32,000 nt of DNA from Okeania sp. GTDB lineage: Bacteria; Cyanobacteriota; Cyanobacteriia; Cyanobacteriales; Microcoleaceae. Positions 4,073-22,470 of the stretch are shown one piece after another (position 1 is the stretch's first letter; every line of letters starts with the position of its first letter). Both the position numbers and the translations under genes were made by a program. The notes under the pieces were generated by a model. It made no database searches and was not told the origin of the DNA. It worked only from the letters and a program-made list of their open reading frames with translations. The DNA lies in the NCBI RefSeq assembly GCF_035285525.1, contig NZ_JAYKGW010000183.1, forward strand, positions 9,783-41,782, given 5' to 3'.

Positions 4073-4424
4073 TTAGCTATTAGCTTTTAATATTTCTTGA
4101 CGGAATGCTCCGCAAACAGCCATCAGTATTTTAGCATTTTTGGATTGATTCGACAATTCTATAAATTAGTGCTAACTTGACCATAACTTTATAATAGCAG
4201 AGATTTGGGAAAAAATCTATGATTTAATTTCCCAAATCTTGAAAAAATTTAGTTTCATTTATCTAGTCTCTACAAAATTCATAATGGATAATTGATAACG
4301 AAAACTATGACAATCTCTAAATAGGTTAGCTGGCAAGATTCATAACACAAATAAAATAGAGCTACTATATCTTGGAATTATCCACTCATTATTAATTATT
4401 AATTATCCATTATTAATTAGGCTT

Positions 4425-4627
4425 TGCGTATGGAAATCTGAAAAATATGACAGATAAAATTTTTAGTATTTTTAGGTTCTGAGAAAATGCAACTTTTTGG
4501 ATAGCTCTGTTACGGTTCCCGAAAAATCAAAAAGGAGCGTATTTTGGGGAAGAGTTGATCTCAAAAAATACCCCCCATCGCCAATCCCCCTATCTTCTTA
4601 AAAAGACTTTTTCAGCAAGTTCTAATT
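4425..4627. repeat. MITE-like dispersed element, same family as 2049-2292
   Basis: GCGTATGGAAATCTGAAAAATATGACAGATAAAATTTTTAG core and terminal GACTTTTTCAGCAAGTTCTAAT. Lies in the natF-natG spacer. Confidence 0.55.
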
Positions 4628-4676
4628 ATTAATTATTAATTATCCATTATTAATTATTCCCTACTCTCTAAAAAAA

Positions 4677-5843
4677 ATGATTCACGAGAAAAATCAAAAA
4701 ATTCCTCTATGGCGAGATGAGAGATTTTGGCGTATTGCCCTGCAAGTTCTTGTCATAGTAATTTTGGTTGGGGTAGCAGCTATAATGATTAGCAACCTCA
4801 GCCGTAATTTAGCACAACAAGGTACAAAGTTTGGCTTTAGTTTCCTAAATAATGAAGCAGGATTTAGTATTAGTGAAAGTTTGATTCCTTACGCACCGAA
4901 AGACCCTTATAATCAAGTTTTATTAGCAGGTTTAGTTAATTCTCTGCGAGTCATGATTTTAGGAATTTTCTTCACCACAATAGTGGGAATATTAGCAGGA
5001 ATTGCTAGTTTTTCTGAGAATTGGTTACTCCGAAATTTGAATCTAATTTATGTGGAAGTTGTCAGAAATACTCCTTTATTATTGCAGTTATTTTTCTGGT
5101 ATTTTGCGGTTTTTTTCACTTTGCCAAGACCACAAGAAAAATTAGAATTACCCGGACCGATATTTATGAGTAAACGAGGAATTGCTATTCCTTGGCCGGA
5201 AAATAATTTGAATGTTTGGTTATGGTTAATAGTTTTAGTTATAGGAGCGATCGCTGCAATTTTTATTTGGCAATGGCGGAATAAATTAATGACAGAAAAA
5301 GCAGCGTCTGGTCAACCACAAAATATAGCTTTAATTAGTATGGGAATTATTGCCATATTTATTATTATATTTGGATTAGGTTGGCAAGCACCTAGAGTAA
5401 CAAATGCTGGAGGAACAGAAGGGGGATTAAATTTAACTTTAGAACTTTCAGCTTTATTGGTAGGATTGGTATTTTATACAGGAGCTTTTATTGCCGAAAT
5501 TGTTCGTTCTGGTATTCAAGCAGTACCGAAAGGGCAATGGGAAGCAGCGAGGTCTTTAGGATTAAAGTCTGGTTTAGTAATGAGATTGGTGATTTTTCCT
5601 CAAGCATTACGAGTGATGATTCCACCATTAAATAGTCAATATATGAACTTAGCAAAAAATTCTAGTTTAGCAATAGCTATTGGTTATCCAGATTTGTATG
5701 CTGTGGCGAATACTACTTATAATCAATCAGGTCGTCCAATAGAAGTATTTATCATTTTAATGGTAGTTTATCTTACCATCAATTTGATAATTTCATTGTC
5801 TATGAATTTCTTGAATAAAACTGTTCAATTAAGAGAAAGATAA
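4677..5843 (+). CDS. natG: Amino-acid ABC transporter permease (AapQ/NatG-like)
   Basis: 388 aa, multiple hydrophobic spans. His/Glu/Gln/Arg-type permease region GIQAVPKGQWEAARSLGL. Confidence 0.85.
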   Translation: MIHEKNQKIPLWRDERFWRIALQVLVIVILVGVAAIMISNLSRNLAQQGTKFGFSFLNNEAGFSISESLIPYAPKDPYNQVLLAGLVNSLRVMILGIFFTTIVGILAGIASFSENWLLRNLNLIYVEVVRNTPLLLQLFFWYFAVFFTLPRPQEKLELPGPIFMSKRGIAIPWPENNLNVWLWLIVLVIGAIAAIFIWQWRNKLMTEKAASGQPQNIALISMGIIAIFIIIFGLGWQAPRVTNAGGTEGGLNLTLELSALLVGLVFYTGAFIAEIVRSGIQAVPKGQWEAARSLGLKSGLVMRLVIFPQALRVMIPPLNSQYMNLAKNSSLAIAIGYPDLYAVANTTYNQSGRPIEVFIILMVVYLTINLIISLSMNFLNKTVQLRER

Positions 5844-6334
5844 TATCAGTTATTAGTACCTCCTACTGAACGAACTAGGAGGCTTGAAAATACAGAATAT
5901 TCTTTTTTTATTCTCTTGAAACTAAAGTTTGAGGCTGAGTTGATAAACTAAAAAATCTTCGGGGTTGGTGAATCAAGCTATGAAAGTTAAACTTAGCTAA
6001 ATATATAATAACTTTTCTGTTAAGAGTTAGCCGATGAGTATTAATAAACAATTCACAATCATAGCCAAAAACACCAATGCCAAATCTTCTTATCATAGAA
6101 GTTAAAGTTAACAATCCTAGGGGCGGGTTTCTCAGTTAAGTTAACGAGCTTTTCACATACATTTAGTTAGATAAGCCCCCCTAATTAGGGTTTACTAAAA
6201 AAAACAAAATGTAGGGAGAGTGAGAGCTTTGAAGCCCACCCCTAACCCCTCCCAGGAGGGGAAAACAGAGTCAAGTAGAACGAATAATTTTTCCTAATTT
6301 TTTCTGTCTCGTATTATCCCAAAATTATCAATTT

Positions 6335-6425
6335 TTGAGGGTAAGTTAATTGAAACAGGCACACTTTTTTCAATTATAAAAAGGCTAAAAATTTTATTGA
6401 ATAGTGCTTTGAGATTTAATCAGTA
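6335..6425. repeat. Dispersed non-coding repeat (partner of 1470-1600) within a repeat-filled natG-natH spacer
   Basis: See 1470-1600. The neighbouring 6230-6265 carries a CCCCTAACCCCTCCCAGGAGGGG palindromic patch of a kind also seen at 22320-22365. Confidence 0.45.
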
Positions 6426-6542
6426 ATTCCTAATTCTTAAGAACTATATTTCATGTACTGAGAATCTACTGTATCTATACATTTTTTCCTTTTTTTTTGA
6501 ACATTTATTTACTTCTTCCTTCTTCCTTCTTACTTCTATAAT

Positions 6543-7754
6543 ATGAAAATAATAAATACAACTAAATCTTCAGCTCCACCATTTGCCGAAACTAATTCTC
6601 TAGAATGGCTGAGAAAAAATTTTTTTAGTTCTTGGTACAATACCTTAATCACTTTAATATTATTCAGCGTAATTATTTCGGCAATAACTAACTTTATTTC
6701 CTGGGCAACAACTCAAGCAGAATGGCAAGTAATTGATACTAACTTACCATTATTAATGGTAGGTAGATATCCCAGAGATCAATATTGGCGAATCTGGGTA
6801 ATAGTTGGCATAATTTCTAGTTTCTCTGGTTTTTCTTGGGGAATTATTGCCAGAAAAGCAACTACATTATTTACATTACCAATATTAATTTTTATCGCCT
6901 TTTTACCCGCTATTCTATTATTAATCCCTGTAGATATACCATTTAAAATATTGCTAGTGGGAATGGTAATTTTACTTATTGTTGCTGCCTGGATAGGCAA
7001 ACAATTAGGCAGAAAAAATAATAACTTAGGTAAATATTTATCCTTGGCTTGGTTTATTGCTTTAATATTAATTCTCTGGTTAATTGGAGGTGGATTAGGA
7101 TTAAAATCTGTATCTACAAATGACTGGGGTGGTTTAATGCTAACTATATTAACTTCTGTAGTTAGCATTTTATTATCTTTTCCATTAGGAGTTTTATTGG
7201 CTTTAGGTAGACAAAGCAAATTGCCAGTAATTAGAATATTTTCTATTGGTTATATTGAAATTATTAGGGGATTACCTTTAATTTCAATTCTGTTTATGGG
7301 GCAAATAATGATTCCTCTATTCTTGCCAGATGGAATGAGACCCGATAGAATTTTACGAGCAATTTTAGGATTAACTTTGTTTAGTTCCGCTTATTTAGCA
7401 GAAAATATTAGGGGTGGTTTACAAGCTGTACCTAGAGGTCAAAGTGAAGCGGCAAAAGCATTAGGTTTAAATACTCCATTGAGTGTGGGATTAATTGTTT
7501 TACCTCAAGCTTTAAAAGTAGCTATTCCATCAATTGTTGGTCAATTTATTAGTCTATTTCAAGATACAACTTTATTATCAATTGTCGGATTAGTAGAATT
7601 GTTAGGTATTAGTCGTTCGGTTTTAGCTCAACCTCAATTTTTAGGAGATTATGCAGAAGTTTATTTATTTGATGGTGTACTTTTTTGGATTATTTGTTAT
7701 GCTATGTCAGTCGGTAGTCGGCAGTTAGAGAAAAAGTTAAATACTACTCATTAA
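6543..7754 (+). CDS. natH: Amino-acid ABC transporter permease (AapM/NatH-like)
   Basis: 403 aa, multi-TM. GLQAVPRGQSEAAKALGL permease signature region. Confidence 0.85.
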   Translation: MKIINTTKSSAPPFAETNSLEWLRKNFFSSWYNTLITLILFSVIISAITNFISWATTQAEWQVIDTNLPLLMVGRYPRDQYWRIWVIVGIISSFSGFSWGIIARKATTLFTLPILIFIAFLPAILLLIPVDIPFKILLVGMVILLIVAAWIGKQLGRKNNNLGKYLSLAWFIALILILWLIGGGLGLKSVSTNDWGGLMLTILTSVVSILLSFPLGVLLALGRQSKLPVIRIFSIGYIEIIRGLPLISILFMGQIMIPLFLPDGMRPDRILRAILGLTLFSSAYLAENIRGGLQAVPRGQSEAAKALGLNTPLSVGLIVLPQALKVAIPSIVGQFISLFQDTTLLSIVGLVELLGISRSVLAQPQFLGDYAEVYLFDGVLFWIICYAMSVGSRQLEKKLNTTH

Positions 7755-7903
7755 TTAGGGAATAGGGAACAGTAAAGAAGACAAAAAAACATGAAATACT
7801 AGATTTTCATAATAATTAGTAGGTACTCAAAACAATAATTTTTATGAAAAAAATTCAATCTAGATTTACATCTCATTTGAAAATAGTATACTAACTCTAA
7901 GGT

Positions 7904-8071
7904 CAGGATTCAGCAGTCAGCTATTGCTTTTATCTCAAACTAAAAGCTTTATGATACGGTTGCTGATAAATCAGAAATTTTTCTAAGTATAAAATTATGT
8001 TTTCTAGCATATATTCGTTTAAATATCCTCCTTAAAGTTGATGTTTTTATTACTGATAGCTGAATGCTTAC
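7904..8071. mobile_element. MITE (family with CAGCATTCAGC..TCAGC-type terminal inverted repeats)
   Basis: Left end CAGGATTCAGCAGTCAGCTAT and right end ACTGATAGCTGAATGCTTAC are inverted repeats. The interior is homologous, in inverted orientation, to 26448-26658. Confidence 0.6.
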
Positions 8072-8113
8072 ACTCTAAGTTATTTGTGAAAAAAACTATT
8101 TTGTAAAAGTGAA

Positions 8114-8971
8114 ATGAAAGTTAGAAAATTTGCAGAACATAAAATTATTTTGGGAGATATAATTTCTGTTTTGGATGATTGTGTAGAAGACAATAGTATT
8201 GACCTAATATTTGCTGACCCTCCCTATAATATTGGTAAAAAATTTAATGGCAAACAAAAAAAATGGGATTCTGATGATGAGTATATAAAATGGTGTTATC
8301 AATGGCTAGATTTATGTATGAGGAAATTAAAAAAAACAGGTAGTATTTATATTATGGCAGCAACACAATATATGCCGTATATAGATATTTACTTAAGAGA
8401 TAAAATTACTATTCTTTCCCGAATTATTTGGTATTATGATAGTTCGGGAGTTCAGGCAAAAAAATATTTTGGTTCTTTATATGAACCAATTTTATTTGGA
8501 GTAAAAGATAAAAATAATTACACCTTTAACTCTGAAGAAATAAAGGTTGAAGCTAAAACAGGTGCAGTGCGTAAATTGATTGATTATCGCCAACAAAATC
8601 CAACAGTTTATAATTCTCAAAAAGTGCCGGGAAATGTGTGGTATTTTCCTAGAGTGAGATATAAAATGGCTGAGTATAGAAATCATCCAACTCAAAAACC
8701 AGAAGCTTTATTAGAAAGAATTATTAAAGCAAGTAGTCATCCTGACGATGTGATTCTAGATTTATTTGCTGGAACTTTTACCACTTCTGTAGTTGCTCAA
8801 AGATTGGGAAGGAAATCTATCAGTATAGAAATAGAAGAAGAATATGTAAAATTAGGATTAGAAAGATTGAATTTTGTTTCTGATTTATCGGGAACCGTAA
8901 ATCAAAGTAATCATGCTATTTTAAACGGTCGAGATATTCAATTAACTTTAAACCTAAATATAGGTGATTAA
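8114..8971 (+). CDS. Type II DNA methyltransferase, beta-class amino-MTase (N6-adenine or N4-cytosine)
   Basis: 285 aa. Catalytic FADPPYN near the N-terminus and the SAM-binding DLFAGTFTT near the C-terminus (the beta permutation). Stop TAA directly abuts the next ATG. Confidence 0.85.
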   Translation: MKVRKFAEHKIILGDIISVLDDCVEDNSIDLIFADPPYNIGKKFNGKQKKWDSDDEYIKWCYQWLDLCMRKLKKTGSIYIMAATQYMPYIDIYLRDKITILSRIIWYYDSSGVQAKKYFGSLYEPILFGVKDKNNYTFNSEEIKVEAKTGAVRKLIDYRQQNPTVYNSQKVPGNVWYFPRVRYKMAEYRNHPTQKPEALLERIIKASSHPDDVILDLFAGTFTTSVVAQRLGRKSISIEIEEEYVKLGLERLNFVSDLSGTVNQSNHAILNGRDIQLTLNLNIGD

Positions 8972-9913
8972 ATGGAACATGAATTTACAAAAGTAATCAA
9001 GAATGCTTTGAAAGATACTTATGGAAATAAATCAGAATTAATATACTCAATTTCTCCTATTTTACAATATATTAACCTGAAAACTAGAGCTGCTAATCGA
9101 GGCTCAAAAGCTAGAAGTTCTTTTGGAAACCTATATGCTATTTATGTCTTAGTTGAAGATTATCTGCAAAAGGGTTTTGACGACAATGGTAAATATATTT
9201 CCTATGAAGGTAGCAAATATTCTCAACTTTTATGCAGACAAAGGAAATTACCTTTTGGTCAAAAATTACAAAATCATGCCTTAAACCATAGACTAAACCA
9301 AGAGTTTAAAAAATATTTCCCAACTTGTGATTATGTTCCAGTTATTAGAGAGACTTCAAACAATAGATATTGGTTCAATGAAAATCTACTATTTTGTATA
9401 ATTGAAGAACAAACTTATAATCTAGCTAAAATCATTATTGAAATAATTGAGATGTATATTTCTACAAAAACAAATGCTTTTGAAGACTTCATTAAATCTT
9501 GCCAGCCAATAAGTCAATTAACAGAAGTAAATCCCAATGAAGCTGTTGATTTTATTGTTAAACTTCTACAACCAAATATAGATGCAAGATTGTTTGAAAT
9601 TGTTAGCTATAGCATTTTGAAATATTATTACTATAAACAGACTGTATTTTTTGGTTTTGATCTACAAGATATACAACAAGAAAACTTGAAATTATACAAA
9701 ACAGGGCGAACTAATGCCAATGATGGGGGCGTAGATTTTGTAATGAAGTCATTAGGTAGATTTTTTCAAGTTACAGAAACAACGGATTTCAAAAAGTCCT
9801 TTTTAGATATTGATAAAATAGAAAAAGATCCCTATATTTCATTAAGTCTACGGAAAGTAAGGATAAATTACTTGAAAAAATTAGAAAAAATTCACAAAAG
9901 CAATACTCTGTAA
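8972..9913 (+). CDS. Putative cognate restriction endonuclease; 3' end apparently frameshifted (reading continues in another frame to 10071)
   Basis: Abuts the MTase gene. Contains GRTNANDGGVDFVM, reminiscent of Mrr-cat/PD-(D/E)xK nuclease cores. The family is not recognised with certainty. Confidence 0.6.
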   Translation: MEHEFTKVIKNALKDTYGNKSELIYSISPILQYINLKTRAANRGSKARSSFGNLYAIYVLVEDYLQKGFDDNGKYISYEGSKYSQLLCRQRKLPFGQKLQNHALNHRLNQEFKKYFPTCDYVPVIRETSNNRYWFNENLLFCIIEEQTYNLAKIIIEIIEMYISTKTNAFEDFIKSCQPISQLTEVNPNEAVDFIVKLLQPNIDARLFEIVSYSILKYYYYKQTVFFGFDLQDIQQENLKLYKTGRTNANDGGVDFVMKSLGRFFQVTETTDFKKSFLDIDKIEKDPYISLSLRKVRINYLKKLEKIHKSNTL

Positions 9914-10207
9914 ATCTAATAGTTGAGAAATATATGAACTGCATAGAAGAAATCATCAATTTGCCAACCATCATAGAACGTTTTTACCAGAATGTAGAAA
10001 TAGGATATTTAAGTAATATATTGGAAGAAGTAATTAAGCAGAGCCAAATAGAATTTAACTATGAAGTATAATAATTACCAAAAGTTAATATGAAAAATGA
10101 TAGAGTAGAAAGAATAATTTTCTAGTTAGGGTGGCTACAAAATATTATAACCTTTTAATATTAATAGCTATTCCCTGTTCCCAGTTAAGTGTTCCCTAAA
10201 TAAGAAA

Positions 10208-10987
10208 ATGACACAAATAAAAACAGAAAAAACTGATACACTAATAGATGCTAATATCGGAATTATTGCTACAGATGTTCATAAATGGTATAGCAATAAT
10301 TTTCATGTTCTCCGTGGAGTAAGTCTCACAGTTAAACGTGGAGAAGTAGTAGTAATTATGGGTCCGAGTGGCTCTGGTAAATCAACTTTTATCCGTACCT
10401 TTAATGCTCTAGAAGAATTTCAAAAAGGTAGCATTATTATTGATGGTATTAACTTATCCTACGATTTGAAAAATATTGAGACTATTCGACGGGAAGTGGG
10501 GATGGTATTTCAACAGTTTAATTTGTTTCCTCATCTCACAGTTTTGCAAAATGTTACCCTCGCTCCCATTTGGGTACGTCGATGGCCGAAAGCTAAGGCC
10601 GAAGAAGTGGCAATGCAACTTTTGGAAAGAGTAGGTATTTTGGAACAAGCGAAAAAATTCCCTGGTCAACTTTCCGGAGGTCAACAACAAAGGGTAGCGA
10701 TCGCTCGTGCTTTAGCAATGCAGCCCAAAATTATGTTATTTGATGAACCGACTTCAGCATTAGACCCGGAGATGGTACGGGAAGTTTTGGATGTGATGCG
10801 GGGTTTAGCAGAAGATTCAGGAATGACGATGGTAGTGGTGACTCACGAGGTAGGGTTTGCACGGGAGGTAGCAGATAGAATAGTGTTGATGGCGGATGGG
10901 TTATTGGTAGAAGAAGCGACTCCAGATGAATTTTTCCAAAATCCCAAAGAAGAACGTACCCGGAAGTTTTTGTCACAGATATTGTAG
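10208..10987 (+). CDS. bgtA: Amino-acid ABC transporter ATP-binding protein (AapP/BgtA-like)
   Basis: 259 aa. Walker [11 protein letters not shown]-loop, signature LSGGQQQR, Walker [13 protein letters not shown]-loop VTHE. Confidence 0.9.
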
Positions 10988-13786: not shown

Positions 13787-15076
13787 ATGCTGATTGAATT
13801 CAGTGTCGGTAACTATTTATCTTTTAAAGAAACTGTCACCTTGAGTATGGTGGCGACAAATGTTAGTGCCAAGAATAAAAGTGTTGATGAAAATAATGTT
13901 TTTGATGTTGATGAAGAGTTAAGTTTGCTCAAAAGTGTTGCTGTTTATGGTGCTAATGCTAGTGGCAAAAGTAATTTGATTAAAGCAATGGCTTTTATGC
14001 GTTGGTTTGTGCTTAATTCATCAAAAGAAACTCAGATAGAAGATGCTATTAATGTGGAAGAGTTTAAATTAAGTACGGAGACTGAGGGAAAGCCTTCTTA
14101 TTTTGAAATAGTCTTTATTTTAGAAAATAAATTATATAGATATGGTTTTGAAGTAGATGAAAAACAGGTTATTTCTGAGTGGTTATTTTATGTACCAAAA
14201 GTAAGAGAAAGTAAGTTATTTGAACGGGATGAAAATGGTATCAAGATTCCTACTAAGATTTTTCAAGAAGGAAAATTAATCATAGATAAGACGAGAAATA
14301 ATGCACTTTTTCTTTCTGTAAATGCTCAATTTAACGGCAAAATTTCTACAAGTATTTTGCGATGGTTTATGGATTTGAATATAATTTCAGGATTACATAG
14401 TGATTTATATAAAAGAGTTACAGTTCAATATTTTCAACAACATAGTGAATATAAAAACGAGATTATTCAATTTATTAGACAATGGGATTTAGGTATTGAT
14501 AATATTGAAATTGACACAATAAATATTTTACCAGAACAATTTTCTCAAATTTATTCAGAAGAATTTAGAAAACGTATGAGCGATGTAGGAGTGCAAGCTG
14601 ATGAAATTCAAACATATCATAAAAGATATGATTCTAAAGGTAAAATAGAATCTATAGTAATATTTGATTTTGAAGAAAATGAGTCAGATGGTACTCAAAA
14701 ATTATTTGCTTTTGCAGTACCAATTTTGCAGAGTTTAAAAAATGGAGAAATTTTAATAATAGATGAACTTGATGCTAGATTACATCCCATAATTAATCGT
14801 ACAATAATCGAGCTATTTAACTCTAATCAAACTAATCCTAAAAATGCTCAACTAATTTTTACAAATCATGATACTAACTTACTTAATAGTAAGATGTTCA
14901 GATTAGACCAAATATGGTTTACAGAAAAAGATCGGCAAGGAGCAACCGATTTATATTCTTTAGTTGAATATGAAATTAAAAACGAAGAAATTTTTAAAGA
15001 TGATTATATTAAAGGTAGATATGGAGCAATACCTTTTCTTGGAGATTTAACCGAATTATTTGAAAAAAATGGGTAA
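13787..15076 (+). CDS. ABC-type AAA_21/AAA_15 family ATPase (AbiLi/RloA-like)
   Basis: 429 aa. N-terminal MLIEFSVGNYLSFKE, Walker A GANASGKS, signature-like ESDGTQKLF, Walker B ILIIDELDARLHP, H-loop FTNHDT. Confidence 0.85.
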   Translation: MLIEFSVGNYLSFKETVTLSMVATNVSAKNKSVDENNVFDVDEELSLLKSVAVYGANASGKSNLIKAMAFMRWFVLNSSKETQIEDAINVEEFKLSTETEGKPSYFEIVFILENKLYRYGFEVDEKQVISEWLFYVPKVRESKLFERDENGIKIPTKIFQEGKLIIDKTRNNALFLSVNAQFNGKISTSILRWFMDLNIISGLHSDLYKRVTVQYFQQHSEYKNEIIQFIRQWDLGIDNIEIDTINILPEQFSQIYSEEFRKRMSDVGVQADEIQTYHKRYDSKGKIESIVIFDFEENESDGTQKLFAFAVPILQSLKNGEILIIDELDARLHPIINRTIIELFNSNQTNPKNAQLIFTNHDTNLLNSKMFRLDQIWFTEKDRQGATDLYSLVEYEIKNEEIFKDDYIKGRYGAIPFLGDLTELFEKNG

Positions 15077-15719
15077 AAAAAAAGCATCTGGTAAAAATCA
15101 TCAAAATTCTCGGAATGAGAAAAGTAAATATGCTCGCTCAAGAAATGAAAAAGTAAAAACACGAAAAGCAAAAGAGCGTTTTTTAATAGTTTGTGAGGGC
15201 ACAAAAACTGAACCAAATTATTTTAAAAGTTTTCCTGTTCCTAAAGATGTAATTGAAGTTGATGTACTAGGTGTTGGTAAAAATACGATTAATTTAGTTG
15301 AAAAAGCTCTAAGAATCAAACAAGAAGATGGTGATTACGATAGAGTTTGGTGTGTATTTGACAAAGATTCGTTTCCACCAAAAAATTTTAATGCAGCAAT
15401 AAAATATGCCGAAGATAATAATGTTGAAGTCGCATATTCTAATCAAGCTTTTGAAGTTTGGTACTTGTTACATTTTGACGATCCTTATATCCCAAAGTCT
15501 CGCAAAGACTATGAAAAACTTTTAACTAAAAGGATGAATCAAAAGTATGAGAAAAATAGCAATGAAATGTACAAAATGTTGCTTGATAGACAACCTCAAG
15601 CAATTAAGAATGCAGAGAAGTTATTAAAACAATATAATCCACCTAATCCTGCTAATGATAATCCTTCCACAACAGTACATTTATTAGTTAAAGAACTGAA
15701 TAGATTTGTTCGTAAATAA
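15069..15719 (+). CDS. RloB-like TOPRIM-related protein (AbiLii/OLD-nuclease-like partner)
   Basis: FLIVCEGTKTEPNYF, VWCVFDKD and VAYSNQAFEVWYLLHF match my memory of RloB-family motifs. The ATG at 15069 overlaps the ATPase stop by 8 nt; the ORF track starts at TTG 15060. Confidence 0.8.
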   Translation: MGKKKASGKNHQNSRNEKSKYARSRNEKVKTRKAKERFLIVCEGTKTEPNYFKSFPVPKDVIEVDVLGVGKNTINLVEKALRIKQEDGDYDRVWCVFDKDSFPPKNFNAAIKYAEDNNVEVAYSNQAFEVWYLLHFDDPYIPKSRKDYEKLLTKRMNQKYEKNSNEMYKMLLDRQPQAIKNAEKLLKQYNPPNPANDNPSTTVHLLVKELNRFVRK

Positions 15720-15843: not shown

Positions 15844-16138
15844 TATGTTATTGGGGTAAACTCGCCTATATACTAGACTTTTTATTCAACTCAAGAAGTA
15901 AGGACGATTTCCCATAGGGAATGCTGCGACCCAATCGCGAATCGCCCCTAGATTTTTACCGTGACTAAATTTGGCAATTTTAATAATGTCCGCTGGCACT
16001 ACATTTATTAGTTAAAGAACTGAATAGATTTGTTCGTAAATAAGTGTAGCGATCGCCTTTCTCATTATTCTCTCAATTCACTTAACATTTTCATTCTCTG
16101 AGAACTACCTATAAAAAAAATCGGAAAGAAAATAAAGC

Positions 16139-16167
16139 TTGCATTCTCCAACAAAATCTGATAGTAT
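16139..16167 (+). promoter_or_regulatory. Promoter-like element in repeat unit 2
   Basis: TTGCAT, 17-nt spacer, TAGTAT. Confidence 0.4.
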
Positions 16168-16463
16168 TATGTTATTGGGGTAAACTCGCCTATACACTAG
16201 ACTTTTTATTCAATAAAAGAAGTAGGGACGATTCGCGATTGGGTAGGAGCATTCCCGTTTGCGAAATCGCCCCTAGATTTTTACCGTGACTAAATTTGGC
16301 AATTTTAATAATGTCCGCTGGCACTACATTTATTAGTTCAACAACTGAACAGATTTGTTCGTAAATAAGTTGAGCGATCGCCTTTCTCACTATTCTCTCA
16401 ATTCACTTAACATTTTCATTCTCTGAGAGCTACCTGTCAAAAAAATCGGAAAGAAAATAAAGC

Positions 16464-16492
16464 TTGCATTCTCGAATCAAATCTGATAGTAT
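16464..16492 (+). promoter_or_regulatory. Promoter-like element in repeat unit 3
   Basis: TTGCAT, 17-nt spacer, TAGTAT. Confidence 0.4.
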
Positions 16493-16546
16493 TATGTTAT
16501 TGGGGAAAACTCGCCTATATGCTAGACTTTTTATTCAACACAAAAA

Positions 16547-16574
16547 GTAGGGACGTTTCATGGAACGTCCCTAC
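16547..16574. terminator. Perfect hairpin, likely bidirectional terminator between the repeat array and the convergent minus-strand operon
   Basis: GTAGGGACGTT / AACGTCCCTAC 11-bp stem with a 6-nt loop. On the minus strand it is followed by TTTTTGTGTT; on the plus strand by TGTGGTTTATT. Confidence 0.6.
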
Positions 16575-16632
16575 TGTGGTTTATTCAAATGAAAATCGCT
16601 ATAAGTCATCTAACGATTTATGGCTCAAAATA

Positions 16633-16998
16633 CTATCTAGCTACAGGAAGCAATAATTCGTTGGCGGGAGCGCCCCGTGAAACTTCTTCCCACTGGGGAG
16701 CGATGGGAGCGTATTTACAATAACAGATGACGATGCGGGTATCGGTGTCAAAACTGGCAAACTTTTCGACCCGCGTTACTATCCAATCTCCTTCTCTGGC
16801 ATGAGTAATAGCATCTTGGTCGTCAGTTTTATAGGCACGAGTACGATCGCCTATTTCGGGAATCGTCGGATTTTCTTCAGCGCTCCAGTTTTCTTCTAAA
16901 ATGTCAGTTAGACTTTGACGAGGCATCAGTATTCGTTCTTCCCATCCATGTTCGCTCATACCTTCTGTTTTATAAACTATCCAGGTTTCAGTTGTCAT
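16633..16998 (-). CDS. Hypothetical protein (~121 aa from the MTTETW start), third gene of a small operon
   Basis: Visibly more GC-rich, protein-like ORF. The internal ATG at 16998 is preceded by GAGGA and overlaps the upstream gene by 11 nt. No family recognised. Confidence 0.6.
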   Translation of the reverse strand: MTTETWIVYKTEGMSEHGWEERILMPRQSLTDILEENWSAEENPTIPEIGDRTRAYKTDDQDAITHAREGDWIVTRVEKFASFDTDTRIVICYCKYAPIAPQWEEVSRGAPANELLLPVAR

Positions 16999-17170
16999 AG
17001 CGGTTATCCTCAAAAGTTGTTTGTTCTCCCTCAAAGACGCAATCGACTTTGAGGATTTTGTCTTTATTTGGGCGGACTTCTACAAGTTTCCAGCCATATT
17101 TCTGCTCCATCTCCCGACATTTTGCGGGATCGGTGGCAGAGTGAATATTTTTGCTATTTTTAGACATCAA
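16988..17170 (-). CDS. Hypothetical small protein (60 aa), second gene of the operon
   Basis: ORF tightly packed between the flanking genes (3-nt gap upstream, 11-nt overlap downstream). Confidence 0.5.
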   Translation of the reverse strand: MMSKNSKNIHSATDPAKCREMEQKYGWKLVEVRPNKDKILKVDCVFEGEQTTFEDNRYDN

Positions 17171-17173
17171 GCT

Positions 17174-17437
17174 TTATCCTACAGATAGACTGTGTGTCTG
17201 TGATTTTTTGGCGATCGCTTCCTCCTGTAGTAGCTCTTCTAACTTTGCTCTGACTTTATCCTGCCAGTTTGGAATATTTTTGATAGTTGCTAAGTCATTA
17301 GAGTCAATTCTCAATGCGAGTAAAGCTTTGTTTGGTTTCTCTGGGTTTTTGGCTTGAAAAGCATACTTAGAAATTCCTGGATTGCCTCCTGGTCTTCCAG
17401 GTCGGGAACTCTTTGCTTTGTGTTTAGTCGCGATCAT
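17174..17437 (-). CDS. Hypothetical small basic protein (87 aa), possible DNA-binding regulator; first gene of the operon
   Basis: Basic N-terminus KHKAKSSRPGRPGGNPG followed by a predicted helical region. Sits next to the repeated operator-like motif. Confidence 0.5.
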   Translation of the reverse strand: MIATKHKAKSSRPGRPGGNPGISKYAFQAKNPEKPNKALLALRIDSNDLATIKNIPNWQDKVRAKLEELLQEEAIAKKSQTHSLSVG

Positions 17438-17469
17438 TCTTTGTCCTCAATCATGTCCAATCCTTTGTT

Positions 17470-17544
17470 CATATTATAGCACGTTAACACGCAAAGAAAT
17501 ATTTTATATTAATGGTTGACATTTATATGTTAACACGCTATGAT
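17470..17544. promoter_or_regulatory. Divergent promoter region with two direct GTTAACACGC motifs
   Basis: Minus strand: TGCTATAAT extended -10 (complement of about 17472-17480). Plus strand: TTGACA (17516-17521), 17 nt, TATGAT (17539-17544). GTTAACACGC at 17483-17492 and 17529-17538; each copy lies beside or between promoter boxes. Confidence 0.5.
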
Positions 17545-17604
17545 AATAAACGTATAAATTAAGAGGCCAGCATTCAGCCGTCAGCAGTAATTGACAAAAT
17601 ATCA

Positions 17605-17839
17605 TTAATTTTCATAAGTTTTAGCTATTGATCCTGTTAATAATTTATGGCGCTCGGCTATTGGCAAACGAGCAATTTCTTTGAGAGATAACTGATTTTT
17701 AGAATCAACTTCAGATAGTTTCAATTTATGTTGAATAAACTGCAATATTGTCTAGCACTTCCTGTTGTTTTTCAAGTGGTAATAATTTCAGATTATCTAT
17801 GATTTCTTGTTCAATATTATTGTTTATTATTGCTGTCAT
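17605..17839 (-). pseudogene. DUF2281-like antitoxin gene with a frameshift; the downstream partner is reduced to a 13-codon stub
   Basis: MTAIINNNIEQEIIDNLKLLPLEKQQEVLDNIAVYST* continues in another frame as IQHKLKLSEVDSKNQLSLKEIARLPIAERHKLL...YEN*. Span length is 235 nt, not a multiple of 3. Confidence 0.55.
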
Positions 17840-17855
17840 AAAAGTAATCTCCCAT

Positions 17856-18053
17856 TCATAAAATGCGGCGATCGCTCACCCCATCTTTTACATCACATTC
17901 CCCAGAATTTTTACCTAAATCCCAAATAGAAGGTGTTTTTTTGATGGTGGTAATAATAATTTTCCCATTTTCTTGAATAATGTCAAATTCTTGGTTTTCT
18001 CCTAACAATTCTTTAGGTATTAATAAGCCTTCTTCTGTTGCTGTTAATTTCAT
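17856..18053 (-). CDS. AbrB/SpoVT-like antitoxin-type small protein, paralog of 19800-20012
   Basis: 65 aa, MKLTATEEGLLIPKELLGENQEFDIIQENGKIIIT. Near-identical N-terminal 50 aa to the 19800-20012 product. Confidence 0.55.
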   Translation of the reverse strand: MKLTATEEGLLIPKELLGENQEFDIIQENGKIIITTIKKTPSIWDLGKNSGECDVKDGVSDRRIL

Positions 18054-18120
18054 GTTTAATTACCTCAATTCATTTTGTAAATTAATTCATTAAAATCGCC
18101 CTATTTCAGAATGGCAATAC

Positions 18121-18411
18121 TTATCCCAAATTTTCAATTTCCTGTAATACATCTACCAAAGTAGGAGCATTTGAGGAAATAACATTTTCTTGACTTCCAT
18201 CATCTTTATGGTGGGGAAAATTTGGTAAGTTTAGCTTTTTATGATGTTCAGTATTGTCATAGCGGAAAATCAGATTATTTGAGGCAGTCATATATTGATA
18301 GGAATACATATCGCGCTCTATTGTTAATTCTAAATCTACAAATTTTCGCACCATTAAAACAGAATTATCTAGAAACTTTATTTCCCCTCGAATCATACCT
18401 TCGCGCATCAC
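18121..18411 (-). CDS. TumE-family (DUF6516-like) toxin-type protein; N-terminal part lies in another frame up to about 18514, so probably a pseudogene
   Basis: LIFRYDNTEHHKKLNLPNFPHHKDDG matches the remembered TumE motif (RYDN..HH....PHHK). Upstream, LLFEDYFQQLYDLIVACEIVQNFQIITS reads in a different frame. Confidence 0.55.
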   Translation of the reverse strand: MMREGMIRGEIKFLDNSVLMVRKFVDLELTIERDMYSYQYMTASNNLIFRYDNTEHHKKLNLPNFPHHKDDGSQENVISSNAPTLVDVLQEIENLG

Positions 18412-18491
18412 TTCTTTGAGAGGTTATAATCTGAAAATTTTGCACTATTTCACAAGCTACTATTAAGTCGTAAAGTTGTTGGAAGTAGTCT

Positions 18492-18782
18492 TCAAATAAC
18501 AAATTCAATATCTCCCAATTTTTATATCTTTTCTTCGAGTCGTTTCAACATCAAAGCTTCCCCTATCCATTCATCTAATTCTAATGTTTATTCAAATTCA
18601 TCATTCTCATATCGAAGCAGAAATTCTTGAGTAGGTAACTGATATTTTTATTCAAATTATAAGAGTCTTTTTTTAGTTTGAGAAATTCCCGATTTCAGGG
18701 ATTTTATCCTGTCAAACCTCATCTTTTCAATCATGTTTTTTAATGATTCTGGGTCTCGACATTTAATTTTTAGTTCTGGCAT
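18492..18782 (-). pseudogene. Degraded small antitoxin-like gene with four TAA nonsense codons and at least one frameshift
   Basis: MPELKIKCRDPESLKNMIEK...QTKKRLL*FE*KYQLPTQEFLLRYEN / EFE*TLELDEWIGEALMLKRLEEKI*KLGDIEFVI*. Coordinates are approximate. Confidence 0.5.
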
Positions 18783-18808
18783 ATTTATTATCTCCTTTAA
18801 AAGTAATT

Positions 18809-18839
18809 GTAGGTTGGGTTGAGGAACGAAACCCAACAA
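18809..18839. repeat. REP-like palindromic dispersed repeat (GTAGGTTGGGTTGAGGAACGAAACCCAACAA)
   Basis: 8-bp stem GTTGGGTT/AACCCAAC. The same element occurs at 19732-19762, 22436-22470 and 31878-31910, with a variant at 18941-18977. Confidence 0.85.
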
Positions 18840-18840
18840 T

Positions 18841-18928
18841 AGAAATCTCCATAAAAGAGGAAATAGGGAAGAATAATTGATAATTTATGGATAAAAATTG
18901 ATTCTACTTTTTATTTTTGGAAATTTCT
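18841..18928. mobile_element. MITE with AGAAATCTCCA.../...TGGAAATTTCT terminal inverted repeats and AAT target duplication
   Basis: 88 bp, flanked by AAT on both sides. Same family as 20046-20155. Confidence 0.7.
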
Positions 18929-19022
18929 AATAGTAAAGCTTTGTTGGGTTGAACGATAGTGAAACCGAACTTACGGCTGATAACTGATAACTTTTTAGTT
19001 AGGTTAGTAACTATATCAATTA

Positions 19023-19433
19023 TCATGGTAACATTTTAAAGCCAGCTTGAAAAAAATGGTTATCTAAAGTTAAAGCTGTAACTATCTTTCGTTGTTTCAT
19101 AATTATAAATGATAAACAATGAGTTAGAGAATAGGATTTATCTTGATGCTTTTGAAAATATTGCCATCCTTAATTAAATAGATTTTGATCGATATTAATC
19201 AATTCTATCTCAGGACTTTCTAATAGTTGATTACCAACTTCCACTGCTTTATAATGAAGGTTTCTACTATTGAAGAAAGTTACAACTTCATCAAAAATAT
19301 ACGTTGTTGTTACTAAAAAAGGCTTAGATTTTACTAAAAAATTCCAATTTTCTAATACTTGTTGATGAGCGTCTTCACTTTTGATTTCTAGAGCCAAAAT
19401 ATAGCTAGTATCCAAAAAATAGATTTCTTTCAT
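19023..19433 (-). pseudogene. vapC: PIN-domain VapC toxin gene with an in-frame TAA at 19170-19172
   Basis: MKEIYFLDTSYILALE... stops after 87 aa. The same frame continues GWQYFQKHQDKSYSLTHCLSFIIMKQRKIVTALTLDNHFFQAGF to TGA at 19023-19025. Total 411 nt, a multiple of 3. The usual TDC Asp reads THC. Confidence 0.7.
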
Positions 19434-19513
19434 TGTTGATTATAAAGATAACGGTCGTGATTAATTGCGCCATCGTTTACATCGCATTCCACAGGTGTTG
19501 CTGTTAATTTCAC
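19430..19513 (-). pseudogene. Internally deleted remnant of the AbrB-like antitoxin paralog, overlapping the vapC start (ATGA)
   Basis: VKLTAT|PVECDVNDGAINHDRYLYNQQ*. The N-terminal 6 aa and C-terminal tail match the 19800-20012 product; the middle is missing. Confidence 0.6.
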
Positions 19514-19731
19514 GTTTAATTACCTCAATTAATTTTGTATATTAATTCATTAAATAGAAGCGATCGCCAATTAAAAAATTAAAATAATCGCCAACTGATA
19601 ACTGATTTTATGGTTCAATCCAGTCTTCACAAGCTGCAATTAAAATATTAGCAACTCGATTATCGAGAGCTTCTTTGAACGCTTCTGTCTTCCGCGTAGC
19701 GGTACGATAGTGAAACCCAACCAAACCCTAC

Positions 19732-19762
19732 TGTTGGGTTTCGTTCCTCAACCCAACCTACG
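19732..19762. repeat. REP-like palindromic dispersed repeat, truncating a second vapC copy after about 11 codons
   Basis: CTGTTGGGTTTCGTTCCTCAACCCAACCTACGG. The minus-strand ATG at about 19803 gives MKEVYFLDTSYTLA and then runs into the repeat. Confidence 0.8.
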
Positions 19763-19799
19763 GCTAAAGTATAGCTAGTATCCAAAAAATAGACTTCTT

Positions 19800-20012
19800 T
19801 CATTGTTGATTATACAGATAACGGTTGCGATCGCTAACCCCATCTTTTACATTAAATTCCACAGGATTTTTACCTAAATCCCAAATAGAAAGTGTTTTTT
19901 TGATGCTGGTAATAATAATTTTTCCATTTTCTTGAATAATCTCAAACTCTTGGCTTTCTCCTAATAATTCTTTAGGTATTAATAAGCCTTGTTCTGTTGC
20001 TGTTAATTTCAT
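19800..20012 (-). CDS. AbrB/SpoVT-like antitoxin-type small protein, paralog of 17856-18053
   Basis: 70 aa, MKLTATEQGLLIPKELLGESQEFEIIQENGKIIIT...DRNRYLYNQQ. The stop overlaps the truncated vapC start. Confidence 0.55.
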   Translation of the reverse strand: MKLTATEQGLLIPKELLGESQEFEIIQENGKIIITSIKKTLSIWDLGKNPVEFNVKDGVSDRNRYLYNQQ

Positions 20013-20045
20013 ATTTAATTACCTCAATTAATTTTGTAGATTAAT

Positions 20046-20155
20046 AGACATCTCCAGAAAAGAGGGAACGCTTAACACAACCGCGCTTAACTGGGAAGAA
20101 GAATTGATAATTTATAGATAATAATTGATTTTACTTTTTATTTTTGGAGATGTCT
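20046..20155. mobile_element. MITE (same family as 18841-18928) inserted in the leader of the antitoxin paralog, AAT target duplication
   Basis: AGACATCTCCAGAAAA...TTTTTGGAGATGTCT inverted ends. Filled site is GATTAAT[MITE]AATTCATTAAAAT. Empty paralogous sites read ATTAATTCATTAAA(A)T at about 18088 and 19545. Confidence 0.75.
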
Positions 20156-20264
20156 AATTCATTAAAATTACTATATTTCAAAATTGCCATGCTTATGCTA
20201 TCTTTAAACACTATAGATTGGGCGCTGCGTTACACTCCGTTAACGCATCCTAGTGGGCTGAAAA

Positions 20265-21293
20265 CTACGAAACAGAAGAACACCTGCTAACTTCAATATT
20301 CTTCCTGAGTTGCGACAGGAACTTATTTGAGGTAATTCTCACTAGAATTGAAGCGATCGTATCTCGATGCAGTGTCTTTTCCTTCGAGTAAAGCATCTGC
20401 TTACACGTTTTGTGTTCTTGCTTGAGGTACGCCAGACAATCAGCGTAAACCCCCTTGTTTACCATTATGTCTAGAATTTCGCGATATTTACTGTCGTCAA
20501 TAGCTTCCAGTCTCAATTCTTCGAGTCGTTTCCTCTCTTGCTCATTACATCTTTGAGTCATTAAATAAACTGCCAACGTGAGTTTTCCATTTATAAAGTC
20601 TGAAAATTGATCCTGATATGGTTTTTCCAGCTTTGATAAATTCTCAACTGGCAGTGCAAAATCACCGAAATCATTTGCAGCTTGAGTAGCGGCTCCATAG
20701 ATAGCCCCCATTTCATAAAGTAGTTCGTCAGGCTTTCCTGCCACAATCGAGCCTGCAAAAAAACAACTCCCGTAAAATACACCAGAAAGCAGTCTACACC
20801 GCAGTTGATAAGCCTCTAGAAAATTATCGTAGTCTTGATATTCACTTATTCTAGAAACCTGTAGGTCTCGAATATCCATCATCTGACCAAGATAAACTTG
20901 GTGGTTTATTTGACTCAGAAGTGGTAAAACTGATGTCAGACTATGCTCTTCTAGAATTTGTTGGGCAATTTCTCTAAGTTGAAACCCAGATATAACTAGC
21001 TTTCGTTTATTTTCAGGGCTATCATACCCATGCTTTTCATCAAGAAACCAGTTAATCACATAAGTTGAGCAGTTTAGGACCTCAAAACTTGCACAAACTG
21101 GAAGAATCTCCTTCCAGTTTTGACCTCCGTTAATTTCATAACCTGTTCTGATCTGGAGATCCCGTAATCGAGGGTGGCCATGTCGCTTCATCGGAAGTAG
21201 CTTCACTTCCGGACTCAACTTGTCCATATAGTGTTTGATAAGTATATCTGTTGCTTGTGACGTCTCTTCCATGAGATTGAAATACTGGCTCAT
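20265..21293 (-). CDS. Trans-isoprenyl diphosphate synthase-fold (polyprenyl synthetase-like) protein with non-canonical Asp-rich motifs
   Basis: 342 aa. Aligns by eye to the IspA-type layout: GHPRLRD (for GKRLRP), VINWFLDEKHGYD in place of the first DDxxxxD, LGQMMDIRD, GAATQAANDFGDF in place of FQxxDDxxD, INGKLTL. Confidence 0.6.
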   Translation of the reverse strand: MSQYFNLMEETSQATDILIKHYMDKLSPEVKLLPMKRHGHPRLRDLQIRTGYEINGGQNWKEILPVCASFEVLNCSTYVINWFLDEKHGYDSPENKRKLVISGFQLREIAQQILEEHSLTSVLPLLSQINHQVYLGQMMDIRDLQVSRISEYQDYDNFLEAYQLRCRLLSGVFYGSCFFAGSIVAGKPDELLYEMGAIYGAATQAANDFGDFALPVENLSKLEKPYQDQFSDFINGKLTLAVYLMTQRCNEQERKRLEELRLEAIDDSKYREILDIMVNKGVYADCLAYLKQEHKTCKQMLYSKEKTLHRDTIASILVRITSNKFLSQLRKNIEVSRCSSVS

Positions 21294-22057
21294 TTGTCAC
21301 CCCCTTTCTGATAAATTCGGTATTGATCGTTTTGGTAAGAAATTAGTTGGAAGCCTGCTGAACTCAACATACCTTCTACATAATCGAGTTCGAGTAATCG
21401 CATTTGTACTCTTTGATGTTCCGTAATACTCTCATGTTTGTGACACACATAATCAATAATGAGATATTGCTCCCCATCAACCCAATTTTTGCTAACGGTT
21501 CTTTCAAACGACATTTCCCCATCAAACTTATCTAATTTACTGTGATTAGCATTTGATGTGGTAATAATTAAATACCCTCCGTCATATAAGTGTGCAGCAA
21601 CCCGTTCAAAACTTTGTTGAATAGCATCTATATCCTGGATATGGCTAGCAAGTAAAAAGGTATCACTATCACGAATAAAAGCCCAAGCACCACCACGGGA
21701 ATAGGCAGCATCAAATGTCTGATCGAGTTCAAGATTACATACATCTTGACAATAGAGTTCTACTTGAGAACCCAAGCAAGTCTGAGCTTGAGCAAGTAGC
21801 GACGTGCTTGTATCTATCCCAGTGATTTGGAGTAGAGGTTTCAACTGAATAAGTTGTTCTGCTAGCAAACCAGTTCCGATTCCTATATCCAAGATTTTTT
21901 GCCGATTTCCCAAAATCTCTAGCAGTTCGGTTGCAATTGCTCTATAATCTCGGTTCCTTCCAATGAAAGCATTATAGAAATTGGACATACCTTTGTATAG
22001 ATCGGCATCACGGGATTCGAACTTGGCTATCACCTGTTTTATATCAGAGTTGTTCAT
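21290..22057 (-). CDS. Class I SAM-dependent methyltransferase
   Basis: 255 aa. Motif I ILDIGIGTGLLAEQL. The stop overlaps the start of the downstream gene (ATGA at 21290-21293). Confidence 0.8.
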   Translation of the reverse strand: MNNSDIKQVIAKFESRDADLYKGMSNFYNAFIGRNRDYRAIATELLEILGNRQKILDIGIGTGLLAEQLIQLKPLLQITGIDTSTSLLAQAQTCLGSQVELYCQDVCNLELDQTFDAAYSRGGAWAFIRDSDTFLLASHIQDIDAIQQSFERVAAHLYDGGYLIITTSNANHSKLDKFDGEMSFERTVSKNWVDGEQYLIIDYVCHKHESITEHQRVQMRLLELDYVEGMLSSAGFQLISYQNDQYRIYQKGGDK

Positions 22058-22435
22058 ACTCCAAGAAATTCCTAAAACTTTGGCTGTTTTTTCTAACTAT
22101 AACAGAACTTGTGTAAAGATACTATATAGTCTTAATATAAAATCCGTCAGAATTCAGAATTTCCTCCGGAATACTCCGCAAACAGAATTCAGAATCCAGA
22201 AGGGAAAAGAACTCAGAATTATTTCTGCTCTGGGTGGGGTTAGGTTTTTCACCCCAAACTACAGTTTTCAGTTATCAGTGAACCCAGAAACCGGGTTTCT
22301 TTGCGTAAGTCGGATATTTTCCCCTTTTCTTATCCCCCCTTTCAAAGGGGGGTTAGGGGGGATAAACACCTTACTATTGTTCGGTTTCGGTTCCATGCTA
22401 CGCAATGCTAGCGCCAACAACAAAAGCTACGCGCT

Positions 22436-22470
22436 ATTGTTGGGTTTCGTTCCTCAACCCAACCTACGCA
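22436..22470. repeat. REP-like palindromic dispersed repeat overlapping the metH stop codon
   Basis: ATTGTTGGGTTTCGTTCCTCAACCCAACCTACGCA. The metH TAG (22464-22466) is the CTA of the repeat's ...CCTACG end. Confidence 0.85.

Follow-up and report, generated by a model that had tools for sequence, protein, structure and literature searches.

If the trans-isoprenyl pyrophosphate synthases (trans-IPPS) are, as in the textbooks, defined by two DDxxD motifs, what is to be made of a protein that has their fold but neither motif, and whose gene overlaps that of a methyltransferase? The question is raised by two adjacent genes in a 32,000-nucleotide stretch of DNA from the cyanobacterium Okeania sp. 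(contig NZ_JAYKGW010000183.1, positions 9,783 to 41,782; the whole of this stretch is here called the window, and coordinates refer to it). The upstream gene, MT (21290..22057, minus strand), is a 255-residue open reading frame (ORF) for a class I S-adenosylmethionine (SAM)-dependent methyltransferase, whose homologues have about 240 residues; the downstream gene, PT (20265..21293, minus strand), encodes a 342-residue protein with a non-canonical version of the trans-isoprenyl-diphosphate-synthase (IDS) fold. As judged from sequence comparison, what is new here is a catalytic signature within the trans-IPPS fold together with a new kind of methyltransferase-isoprenoid cassette; the fold itself is known.

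The placement of PT in the trans-IDS superfamily is confirmed both by family thresholds and by its predicted structure. PT scores 43.5 bits against Pfam PF00348 (polyprenyl_synt; cutoff 27), and this domain is present in all 38 homologues returned by a PT family search of a 5.8-billion-protein index. A family profile built from 17 homologues for comparison with the PDB aligns over its full length with solved hexaprenyl, heptaprenyl, geranylgeranyl (GGPP) and octaprenyl diphosphate synthases (E 1.6e-13 to 1e-7; for the hexaprenyl, heptaprenyl and GGPP synthases, 1e-13 to 1e-11). The AlphaFold model, based on a 34-sequence alignment, is all-helical, with a mean predicted local distance difference test score (pLDDT) of 90.3 and a predicted template modelling score (pTM) of 0.89; and its best 50 Foldseek matches in the PDB are all trans-IPPS (probability 1.0, template modelling (TM) score 0.61-0.77, with the best neighbours at 0.70-0.77). 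The first-pass annotation had likened PT to trans-IPPS enzymes of the IspA layout and had set it down beforehand that the protein should model as an alpha-helical isoprenoid synthase, and on both points these comparisons agree with it. In Pfam, PT has no terpene-synthase match; of the NCBIfam equivalogs none applies, IdsA coming nearest with 23.5 bits where 468 are required. Pfam, NCBIfam, the PDB and the searchable literature yielded no characterised member of its family.

Neither of the DDxxD motifs of chain-elongating trans-IPPS is present in PT. In place of the first Asp-rich motif (FARM; DDxxD followed by RRG), it has N81-W-F-L-D85-E-K87 (21033..21053, minus strand; aligned to DDVVD of 4JXY and DDIMD of 1WY0), and in place of the second it has N207-D-F-G-D211 (20661..20675, minus strand; aligned to DDIMD and DDVLD). 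The canonical ExxH that precedes the first motif corresponds to E71..N74, such that His has become Asn74, and the canonical RRG that follows it corresponds to a single invariant Lys (K87). The region I loop, GGKRLRP in canonical enzymes, where it binds the diphosphate of isopentenyl diphosphate (IPP), reads G39-H-P-R-L-R-D45 (21159..21179, minus strand) in a hidden Markov model (HMM) alignment to 4JXY (gkprLRd vs GGKRLRP): R44 is invariant and R42 nearly so, and the canonical Lys is replaced by Pro (P41). PT retains R42, R44, K224, K237, the GQxxD region, the Gln before the second motif and the GK(L)T(L) region. Position 9 of its NDxxD motif is Pro (P215) rather than Glu, and there is no NSE/DTE triad. 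The HMM alignment reproduces the earlier reading of the second motif (as ANDFGD) and of the loop (as GHPRLRD); for the first motif, read as FLDEKHGYD, the residues had been given correctly in a register that was two residues late.

Is this site merely the remnant of a decaying synthase? Among 34 full-length homologues, which extend down to 30% identity, N74, N81, D85, K87, Q204, N207, D208, G210 and D211 are invariant, as are K224, D228, Q229, D232 and R310. In comparisons with orthologues, PT has a ratio of nonsynonymous to synonymous substitution rates (dN/dS) of 0.06-0.15, and MT one of 0.12-0.25. Because the motif residues are invariant and dN/dS is low, the NxxxD/NDxxD site is, on this evidence, an alternative active site under selection and not the product of decay, and the idea that PT is a pseudogene or a decayed IDS was rejected on the same grounds.

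The signature extends well beyond cyanobacteria. When the PT profile was run exhaustively against 1.84 billion cluster representatives, it recovered 172 clusters at E<1e-30, 593 at E<1e-10 and 4,611 at E<1e-3; because only 4,611 clusters reach the most permissive threshold, the profile is well separated from ordinary IDSs. When 167 of the best hits were aligned, the first position of the first motif was Asn in all but about 7, its second position was variable (W, S, A, L or I), and the second motif was NDxxD in about 160. As it appears in these alignments, the NxxxD/NDxxD signature defines a large family centred on DPANN archaea. Its named members come from Pacearchaeota, Nanoarchaeia, Micrarchaeia, Woesearchaeota and Iainarchaeota, with one Methanosarcinales and one Binatia metagenome-assembled genome (MAG), and their annotation goes no further than "polyprenyl synthetase family protein". 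In a neighbour-joining tree without bootstrapping, the bacterial MT-paired PT clade is monophyletic, nested within the archaeal radiation and sister to an archaeal "NW" subgroup, a topology that suggests, with moderate confidence, a single transfer of PT between the two domains; we infer that its direction was from archaea to bacteria.

How constant is the association between the two genes? Among 43 loci gathered from GTDB species genomes, JGI metagenomes and individual protein look-ups, an MT orthologue lies directly 5' of PT in 17 of 17 bacterial loci, where MT is 46-73% and PT 66-87% identical. The hosts are Okeania, Symploca, Caldora, Roseofilum, unclassified cyanobacterial MAGs, a TARA scaffold and one GC-rich non-cyanobacterial MAG. 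The stop codon of MT overlaps the start codon of PT in the window and in 12/12 cyanobacterial loci scored, as ATGA nine times (the window included) and as TAATG three times. No third gene common to the genera accompanies the pair. It adjoins psbEFLJ in Okeania, a gene for an sdhA-like flavoprotein in Symploca, one for Band_7/flotillin in Roseofilum and, on the TARA scaffold, two-component genes; in the window its neighbour is metH. While the housekeeping proteins of the window fall into clusters with those of Okeania at 90% identity or above, the site of the cassette differs from that in other Okeania. Because the flanks are unrelated and the site differs between Okeania genomes, MT-PT is an autonomous two-gene cassette that relocates. 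The check on neighbour conservation proposed in the first-pass annotation thus came out in favour of the pair as a unit.

Other origins and roles for the pair were considered and rejected. Contamination by archaeal DNA is at odds with two facts: The contigs that bear the pair are cyanobacterial and 480-668 kb long, and cultured isolates have it too (Okeania sp. KiyG1 and Roseofilum BLCC strains). A phage-borne or viral origin found no relative in IMG/VR. A part in defence, suggested by the AbiL, restriction-modification (R-M) and toxin-antitoxin genes nearby, was dropped given that PT has no PADLOC match and that in other genomes the pair stands beside psbEFLJ, an sdhA-like gene, Band_7 or two-component genes; for MT, PADLOC gave only a generic methyltransferase-domain match to mad2.

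MT passes the Pfam cutoffs of Methyltransf_25, 11, 12, 23 and 31, and its model has a pLDDT of 90.5. The SAM-binding motif I reads L56-D-I-G-I-G-T-G-L64 (21866..21892, minus strand), its D, G, G, T and G being shared by all 37 homologues compared, and two further motifs, FD-x-AYSRGGAW and LASHI, are invariant in the family. Its nearest solved structures are the orphan methyltransferases 1Y8C and 3D2L; the indole C3-methyltransferases PsmD, SgMT and SeMT; and the N-methyltransferases TylM1, DesVI, CalS10, KedS8, CypM, CcbJ and glycine N-methyltransferase. Against the C-methyltransferases of prenyl diphosphates, i.e., those of geranyl diphosphate (GPPMT), IPP (IPPMT/Lon23/humMT) and farnesyl diphosphate (SodC/FPPMT) as well as BezA, phmmer found no specific homology at E<=0.01. 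The MT profile matches VbFPPMT only (E 1.7e-3, SAM core only), with no GPPMT among the best 60, and no GPPMT-type enzyme is among the best 50 Foldseek matches of MT.

Moorena, Symploca and Okeania also have paralogues of MT (236 residues, 43-47% identical, sharing YSRGGAW and LASHI), which belong to a separate conserved trio that comprises a 180-residue protein, the MT paralogue and a class III aminotransferase (L026 6404-9092; L027 5896-8580); the best NCBIfam matches of the aminotransferase are PRK06148/PRK06149. BioC is the best NCBIfam match of MT and its paralogues, but it scores 45-49 bits where the cutoff is 185, and this identity was rejected, as was that of BioA for the neighbouring aminotransferase, which likewise falls below its cutoff.

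The surroundings of the archaeal genes bear more directly on the substrates of PT. A 220-residue HTH_10 protein is encoded 5' of the archaeal NW-type PT gene in 13 loci, and an overlapping NUDIX gene lies 3' of it in six. Three of the six exceed the two NCBIfam equivalog cutoffs for type-1 IPP isomerase (IDI; e.g., 162.7 vs 127 and 122 vs 105.8 bits), and the resulting DPANN operon of HTH_10, PT and type-1 IPP isomerase was found in L003, L018, L019 and L036-L038. In addition, four members of the wider family carry an IDI-like NUDIX domain in the same polypeptide, two in the order PT-NUDIX (P0166, P0219) and two in the order NUDIX-PT (P0244, P0249). Because IDI operons are recurrent and the fusions are of independent origin, there is strong guilt-by-association to suggest that the PT family works on IPP and dimethylallyl diphosphate (DMAPP). 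In one Woesearchaeote (L020), HTH_10-PT adjoins an IDI::IDS fusion whose first motif is a canonical DDVFD and whose second is NDTCD; because of this neighbour, PT is probably not simply the only IDS of that organism.

One archaeal locus also carries a methyltransferase: in L041 (163-2612), HTH_10 and PT are followed by an unrelated class I methyltransferase gene that overlaps the 3' end of PT by 17 nt. Its product shares only 25% identity with the window MT and has none of the MT signature motifs; L041 is a second, independent association of PT with a methyltransferase. Separately, a cyclodipeptide synthase (CDPS; PF16715) is encoded on a Nanoarchaeota-type contig (L003 5345-6028), 2 kb 5' of the HTH_10-PT-IDI operon; among the loci gathered, no other PT homologue has a CDPS nearby. 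Prenylation of a cyclodipeptide or of a ribosomally synthesized and post-translationally modified peptide was rejected, the CDPS being confined to L003 and no conserved small ORF being found near the pair.

What, then, might the cassette make? We tentatively favour, at somewhat short of even chances, the reading that MT-PT joins an archaea-derived, non-canonical enzyme of C5 diphosphates to a methyltransferase, and that its output would be a methylated isoprenoid outside the C5n rule. PT would bind the C5 diphosphates DMAPP and IPP by way of Mg2+ coordinated by N81/D85 and N207/D208/D211, with the retained basic residues R42, R44, K87, K224 and K237 aiding diphosphate binding. With a less anionic metal site, PT would probably not elongate chains head to tail in the ordinary iterative way; it seems more likely to perform one condensation only, or an irregular one, that yields a short, non-canonical prenyl diphosphate, or else some further reaction of a non-iterative kind. 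MT would act in the same pathway, on either the C5 precursor or the PT product, and the cassette may have entered marine mat-forming cyanobacteria by one archaea-to-bacteria transfer and then moved between genomic sites. Cyanobacteria already make GGPP and solanesyl diphosphate with canonical IDSs. Because the hosts are supplied in this way, and because in an insect trans-IDS a D-to-N change at the first Asp of the FARM strongly lowers regular coupling and an NDxxD second motif has been proposed to go with irregular coupling (PMC10960109), a non-standard reaction is favoured for PT.

Several observations weigh against this reading. The tree from which an archaeal origin is drawn carries no bootstrap support, and adjacency to IDI would equally be expected of an ordinary IDS. 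The Arg residues of the IPP site, the Gln of "FQ" and the GKxTL region are kept in PT, which is consistent with regular elongation, and transIDS11, an FPPS-like enzyme of mealybugs with an NDYYD motif, keeps regular activity (PMC10960109). On the side of MT, the structural neighbours are mostly amine-acting N-methyltransferases, which suits an amine better than an olefinic prenyl diphosphate; and because the MT paralogues adjoin a class III aminotransferase, there is a hint that the ancestral substrate class was amines. Nor does a conserved cyclase, phosphatase or transporter beside the pair define the end product.

A bolder version of the same reading, which we consider possible but doubtful, would make the NxxxD/NDxxD proteins a new catalytic class of trans-IPPS, in which a metal cluster with less negative charge favours non-head-to-tail or single-turnover chemistry on DMAPP. 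Such a reaction would be a core step of isoprenoid metabolism in DPANN archaea, captured by marine mat-forming cyanobacteria through inter-domain transfer and joined there to a methyltransferase so as to yield a methylated hemiterpenoid or irregular monoterpenoid, perhaps a signal or a volatile.

Could ordinary chemistry suffice? PT might be a short-chain prenyl diphosphate synthase that has diverged in sequence but works in the regular way (i.e., the FPP or GGPP synthase of DPANN archaea), with Asn taking the place of Asp as a metal ligand and the chemistry unchanged; in cyanobacteria it would then maintain a dedicated prenyl diphosphate pool or take up a C5 unit methylated by MT, as in the longestin pathway, where a prenyl synthase incorporates the unit methylated by Lon23. 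Its operons and fusions with type-1 IPP isomerase recall the many crtE-idi operons, its presence in 172 DPANN-wide clusters at E<1e-30 suggests a housekeeping role, and R42, R44, Q204, K224, K237 and the GQxxD region are all kept. There is precedent, too, in the regular activity of transIDS11 (PMC10960109) and in the methylation of IPP by Lon23 (PMC10881772). We nevertheless regard a regular synthase as unlikely: The first Asp of both motifs, the second Asp of the FARM, the region I Lys, the His before the FARM and the RRG have been replaced together, and the IDS-like neighbour with DDVFD in one Woesearchaeote argues for non-redundancy. Furthermore, it would be surprising for strong purifying selection to maintain a redundant regular IDS in a mobile cyanobacterial cassette, and MT is not homologous to Lon23, IPPMT or GPPMT. 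The loss of the region I Lys (to Pro) and of RRG would fit with an IDS-derived terpene synthase or diphosphate lyase, which would ionise a prenyl diphosphate, maybe one methylated by MT, to a hydrocarbon or an alcohol, in the manner of the insect IDS-like terpene synthases and by the logic of GPP methyltransferase and 2-methylisoborneol (2-MIB) synthase. The PT NDxxD resembles the start of the class I cyclase motif, (N/D)Dxx(S/T)xxxE, but P215 occupies the place of the ninth-position Glu of the NSE triad. The pairing of a methyltransferase with a synthase in two genes does match the 2-MIB and sodorifen architecture (PMC10881772); but at the second-substrate site most positions remain invariant, all of the best 50 Foldseek matches are IDSs and none a cyclase, and MT is unrelated to the known prenyl-diphosphate C-methyltransferases, all of which makes such a role improbable.

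If the emphasis is placed instead on MT, whose nearest solved relatives act on amines or on indole C3 (TylM1, DesVI, CalS10, CypM, CcbJ, PsmD) and whose paralogues (43-47% identity) go together with a class III aminotransferase, PT might transfer a dimethylallyl or geranyl group to a non-isoprenoid nucleophile (an amine, indole or peptide) and MT might N- or C-methylate the same scaffold. There is a model for such a reaction in ComQ, a peptide prenyltransferase of the trans-IPPS fold, and IDI would provide the DMAPP donor. This is more improbable still, in that the pair has no conserved neighbour for a precursor peptide, a CDPS or the formation of an amine, the lone CDPS near an archaeal homologue does not recur, and the conserved basic residues suit a second diphosphate substrate. 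Finally, PT could be a non-catalytic or regulatory subunit, comparable to the small subunit of GPP synthase or subunit 2 of decaprenyl diphosphate synthase, that tunes a host IDS, with its link to MT incidental. Like PT, small subunits lack the canonical Asp-rich motifs (cf. transIDS4, PMC10960109), and an IDS-like gene does adjoin PT in L020; yet the polar residues that line the pocket at both motifs are invariant, no large-subunit gene or other IDS partner of PT was found in any cyanobacterial locus, MT is coupled to PT in 17/17 bacterial loci, and in archaea PT is fused directly to IDI. We consider a regulatory role very improbable.

Returning to the locus itself, the two ORFs and their ATGA overlap had been recognised from the outset, and reading the junction, GACAAATGAGCC, places them at the coordinates given above on the minus strand: The overlap is of 4 nt (21290..21293, minus strand), with the TGA stop of MT and the ATG start of PT, an arrangement of the kind that would couple their translation. 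In the database gene call, MT starts at Met24 and has 232 residues. Because a D-L-Y-x-G-M-S segment N-terminal of Met24 is kept in homologues, and because a GGAG ribosome-binding site lies 3 nt 5' of the ATG at 22057, the 255-residue ORF is more likely to be the real gene than the shorter call, which removes a conserved N-terminus. A promoter-like site 5' of the MT start (22121..22150, minus strand) is a weak consensus match and a candidate only: Promoter and terminator scans of the window did no better than on shuffled sequence, and the count of promoter-like sites was no higher. An upstream riboswitch or other RNA element was rejected, there being no Rfam match in the window.

The pair had been described as lying at the edge of an accessory island, and this holds: AbiL, toxin-antitoxin-like ORFs and repeats occupy 13.8-20.2 kb, and metH adjoins on the other side. 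The AbiL-type pair (13787-15719, plus strand) consists of a 429-residue AAA_21 ATPase corresponding to AbiLi (PADLOC E 5e-103) and a 219-residue RloB-like protein corresponding to AbiLii (E 8e-35). The region 16000-20200 is rich in repeats, including a 235-nt direct repeat (16000-16234 and 16325-16559), and in small toxin-antitoxin-like ORFs, among them two copies, 93% identical, of an AbrB/SpoVT-like ORF with MKLTATE.GLLIPKELLG (17856-18053 and 19800-20012) and a PIN-like ORF (19170-19433). Further away, a type II R-M pair (8114-9913, plus strand; an N6_N4 DNA methylase and a REase_II, E 7e-122) sits inside an apparent amino-acid ABC transporter operon (3002-10987), with SBP_bac_3 and two permeases on its 5' side and the ATPase (10208-10987) on its 3' side.

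A 25-nt hairpin repeat, GTTGGGTTTCGTTCCTCAACCCAAC, is present in three exact copies in the window, where none would be expected by chance: downstream of the cassette (19733..19757, plus strand), directly after the metH stop (22439..22463, plus strand) and at 18813..18837 (minus strand). The copies at 19733 and 22439 bracket the MT-PT cassette as direct repeats. The repeat was not found in 40 related loci searched; when translated, it yields spurious ORFs with LGFVPQPNL.

The significance of these findings lies partly in the fold and partly in the cassette. About 170 clusters, mostly from DPANN archaea, replace the first Asp of both motifs by which textbook trans-prenyl synthases are defined: If these enzymes are active, either the metal-binding rule of the fold is looser than assumed or new chemistry is involved, and either outcome bears on how DPANN archaea, with their reduced lipid pathways, make or remodel isoprenoids. 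The pair thereby exposes a large, unstudied archaeal enzyme family. MT-PT itself would be a clean example of gene transfer from archaea to cyanobacteria, the direction being read from an unbootstrapped neighbour-joining tree; and as a compact, directly expressible module, it could provide a new non-C5n building block for the engineering of non-canonical terpenoids.

How does the pair compare with systems already known? The best structural and profile matches of MT (TylM1/DesVI/CalS10, PsmD and 1Y8C/3D2L; TM 0.68-0.76) share with it an N-terminal Y-x-x-F/Y-D helix and a C-terminal beta-sheet lid; identity to this group is 15-20%, and FD-x-AYSRGGAW and LASHI have no counterpart in 1Y8C. Of the ComQ-type context (a ComX-like peptide with ComP/ComA), no conserved small ORF or kinase was found beside the pair across loci. 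In organisation, the cassette can be likened to the GPPMT/2-MIB synthase, SodC/SodD, BezA, IPPMT and Lon23 modules, in which a SAM methyltransferase likewise stands beside an enzyme of the class I isoprenoid fold (PMC10881772). However, the known prenyl-diphosphate methyltransferases are one homologous group (Lon23 is 38% identical to GPPMT; PMC10881772), whereas the window MT falls outside this group and its partner is IDS-like, not a DDxxD/NSE cyclase as in the 2-MIB and sodorifen systems. Assignment to a known module of this type (2-MIB, sodorifen, BezA or IPPMT) was rejected on these grounds, in keeping with the first impression that the pair fits none of the described methyltransferase-terpenoid sets: MT lies outside the GPP, IPP and FPP methyltransferases, and PT lacks both DDxxD and NSE/DTE.

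PT has the same alpha-helical fold as the canonical trans-IPPS (PF00348; GGPP synthase 1WY0, hexaprenyl diphosphate synthase 4JXY, heptaprenyl diphosphate synthase component 2 9KP1), with which it is collinear over its full length. It has in common with them the GQxxD region, the Gln before the second motif, GK(L)T(L), the two Arg residues of region I and the link to IPP isomerase. It differs in its NWxxD and NDxGD motifs, in Pro for Lys in region I, in Asn for His before the FARM and in K87 for RRG, and its profile is about 15-18% identical to these enzymes (best PDB match E 1.6e-13). An NDxxD second motif is also characteristic of chrysanthemyl diphosphate synthase (CPPase), and PT shares this leading Asn with the irregular-coupling trans-IDSs at large. 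The latter are, however, plant and insect derivatives of FPPS that keep a DDxxD first motif, whereas in PT both motifs are changed, the lineage is archaeal and there is no specific sequence relationship; its nearest solved relatives are medium- or long-chain or archaeal IDSs rather than FPPS, and it does not show the CPPase-like combination of motifs. Among the irregular-coupling enzymes, the NDxxD second motif has been proposed to be important for, or a step toward, irregular coupling (PMC10960109).

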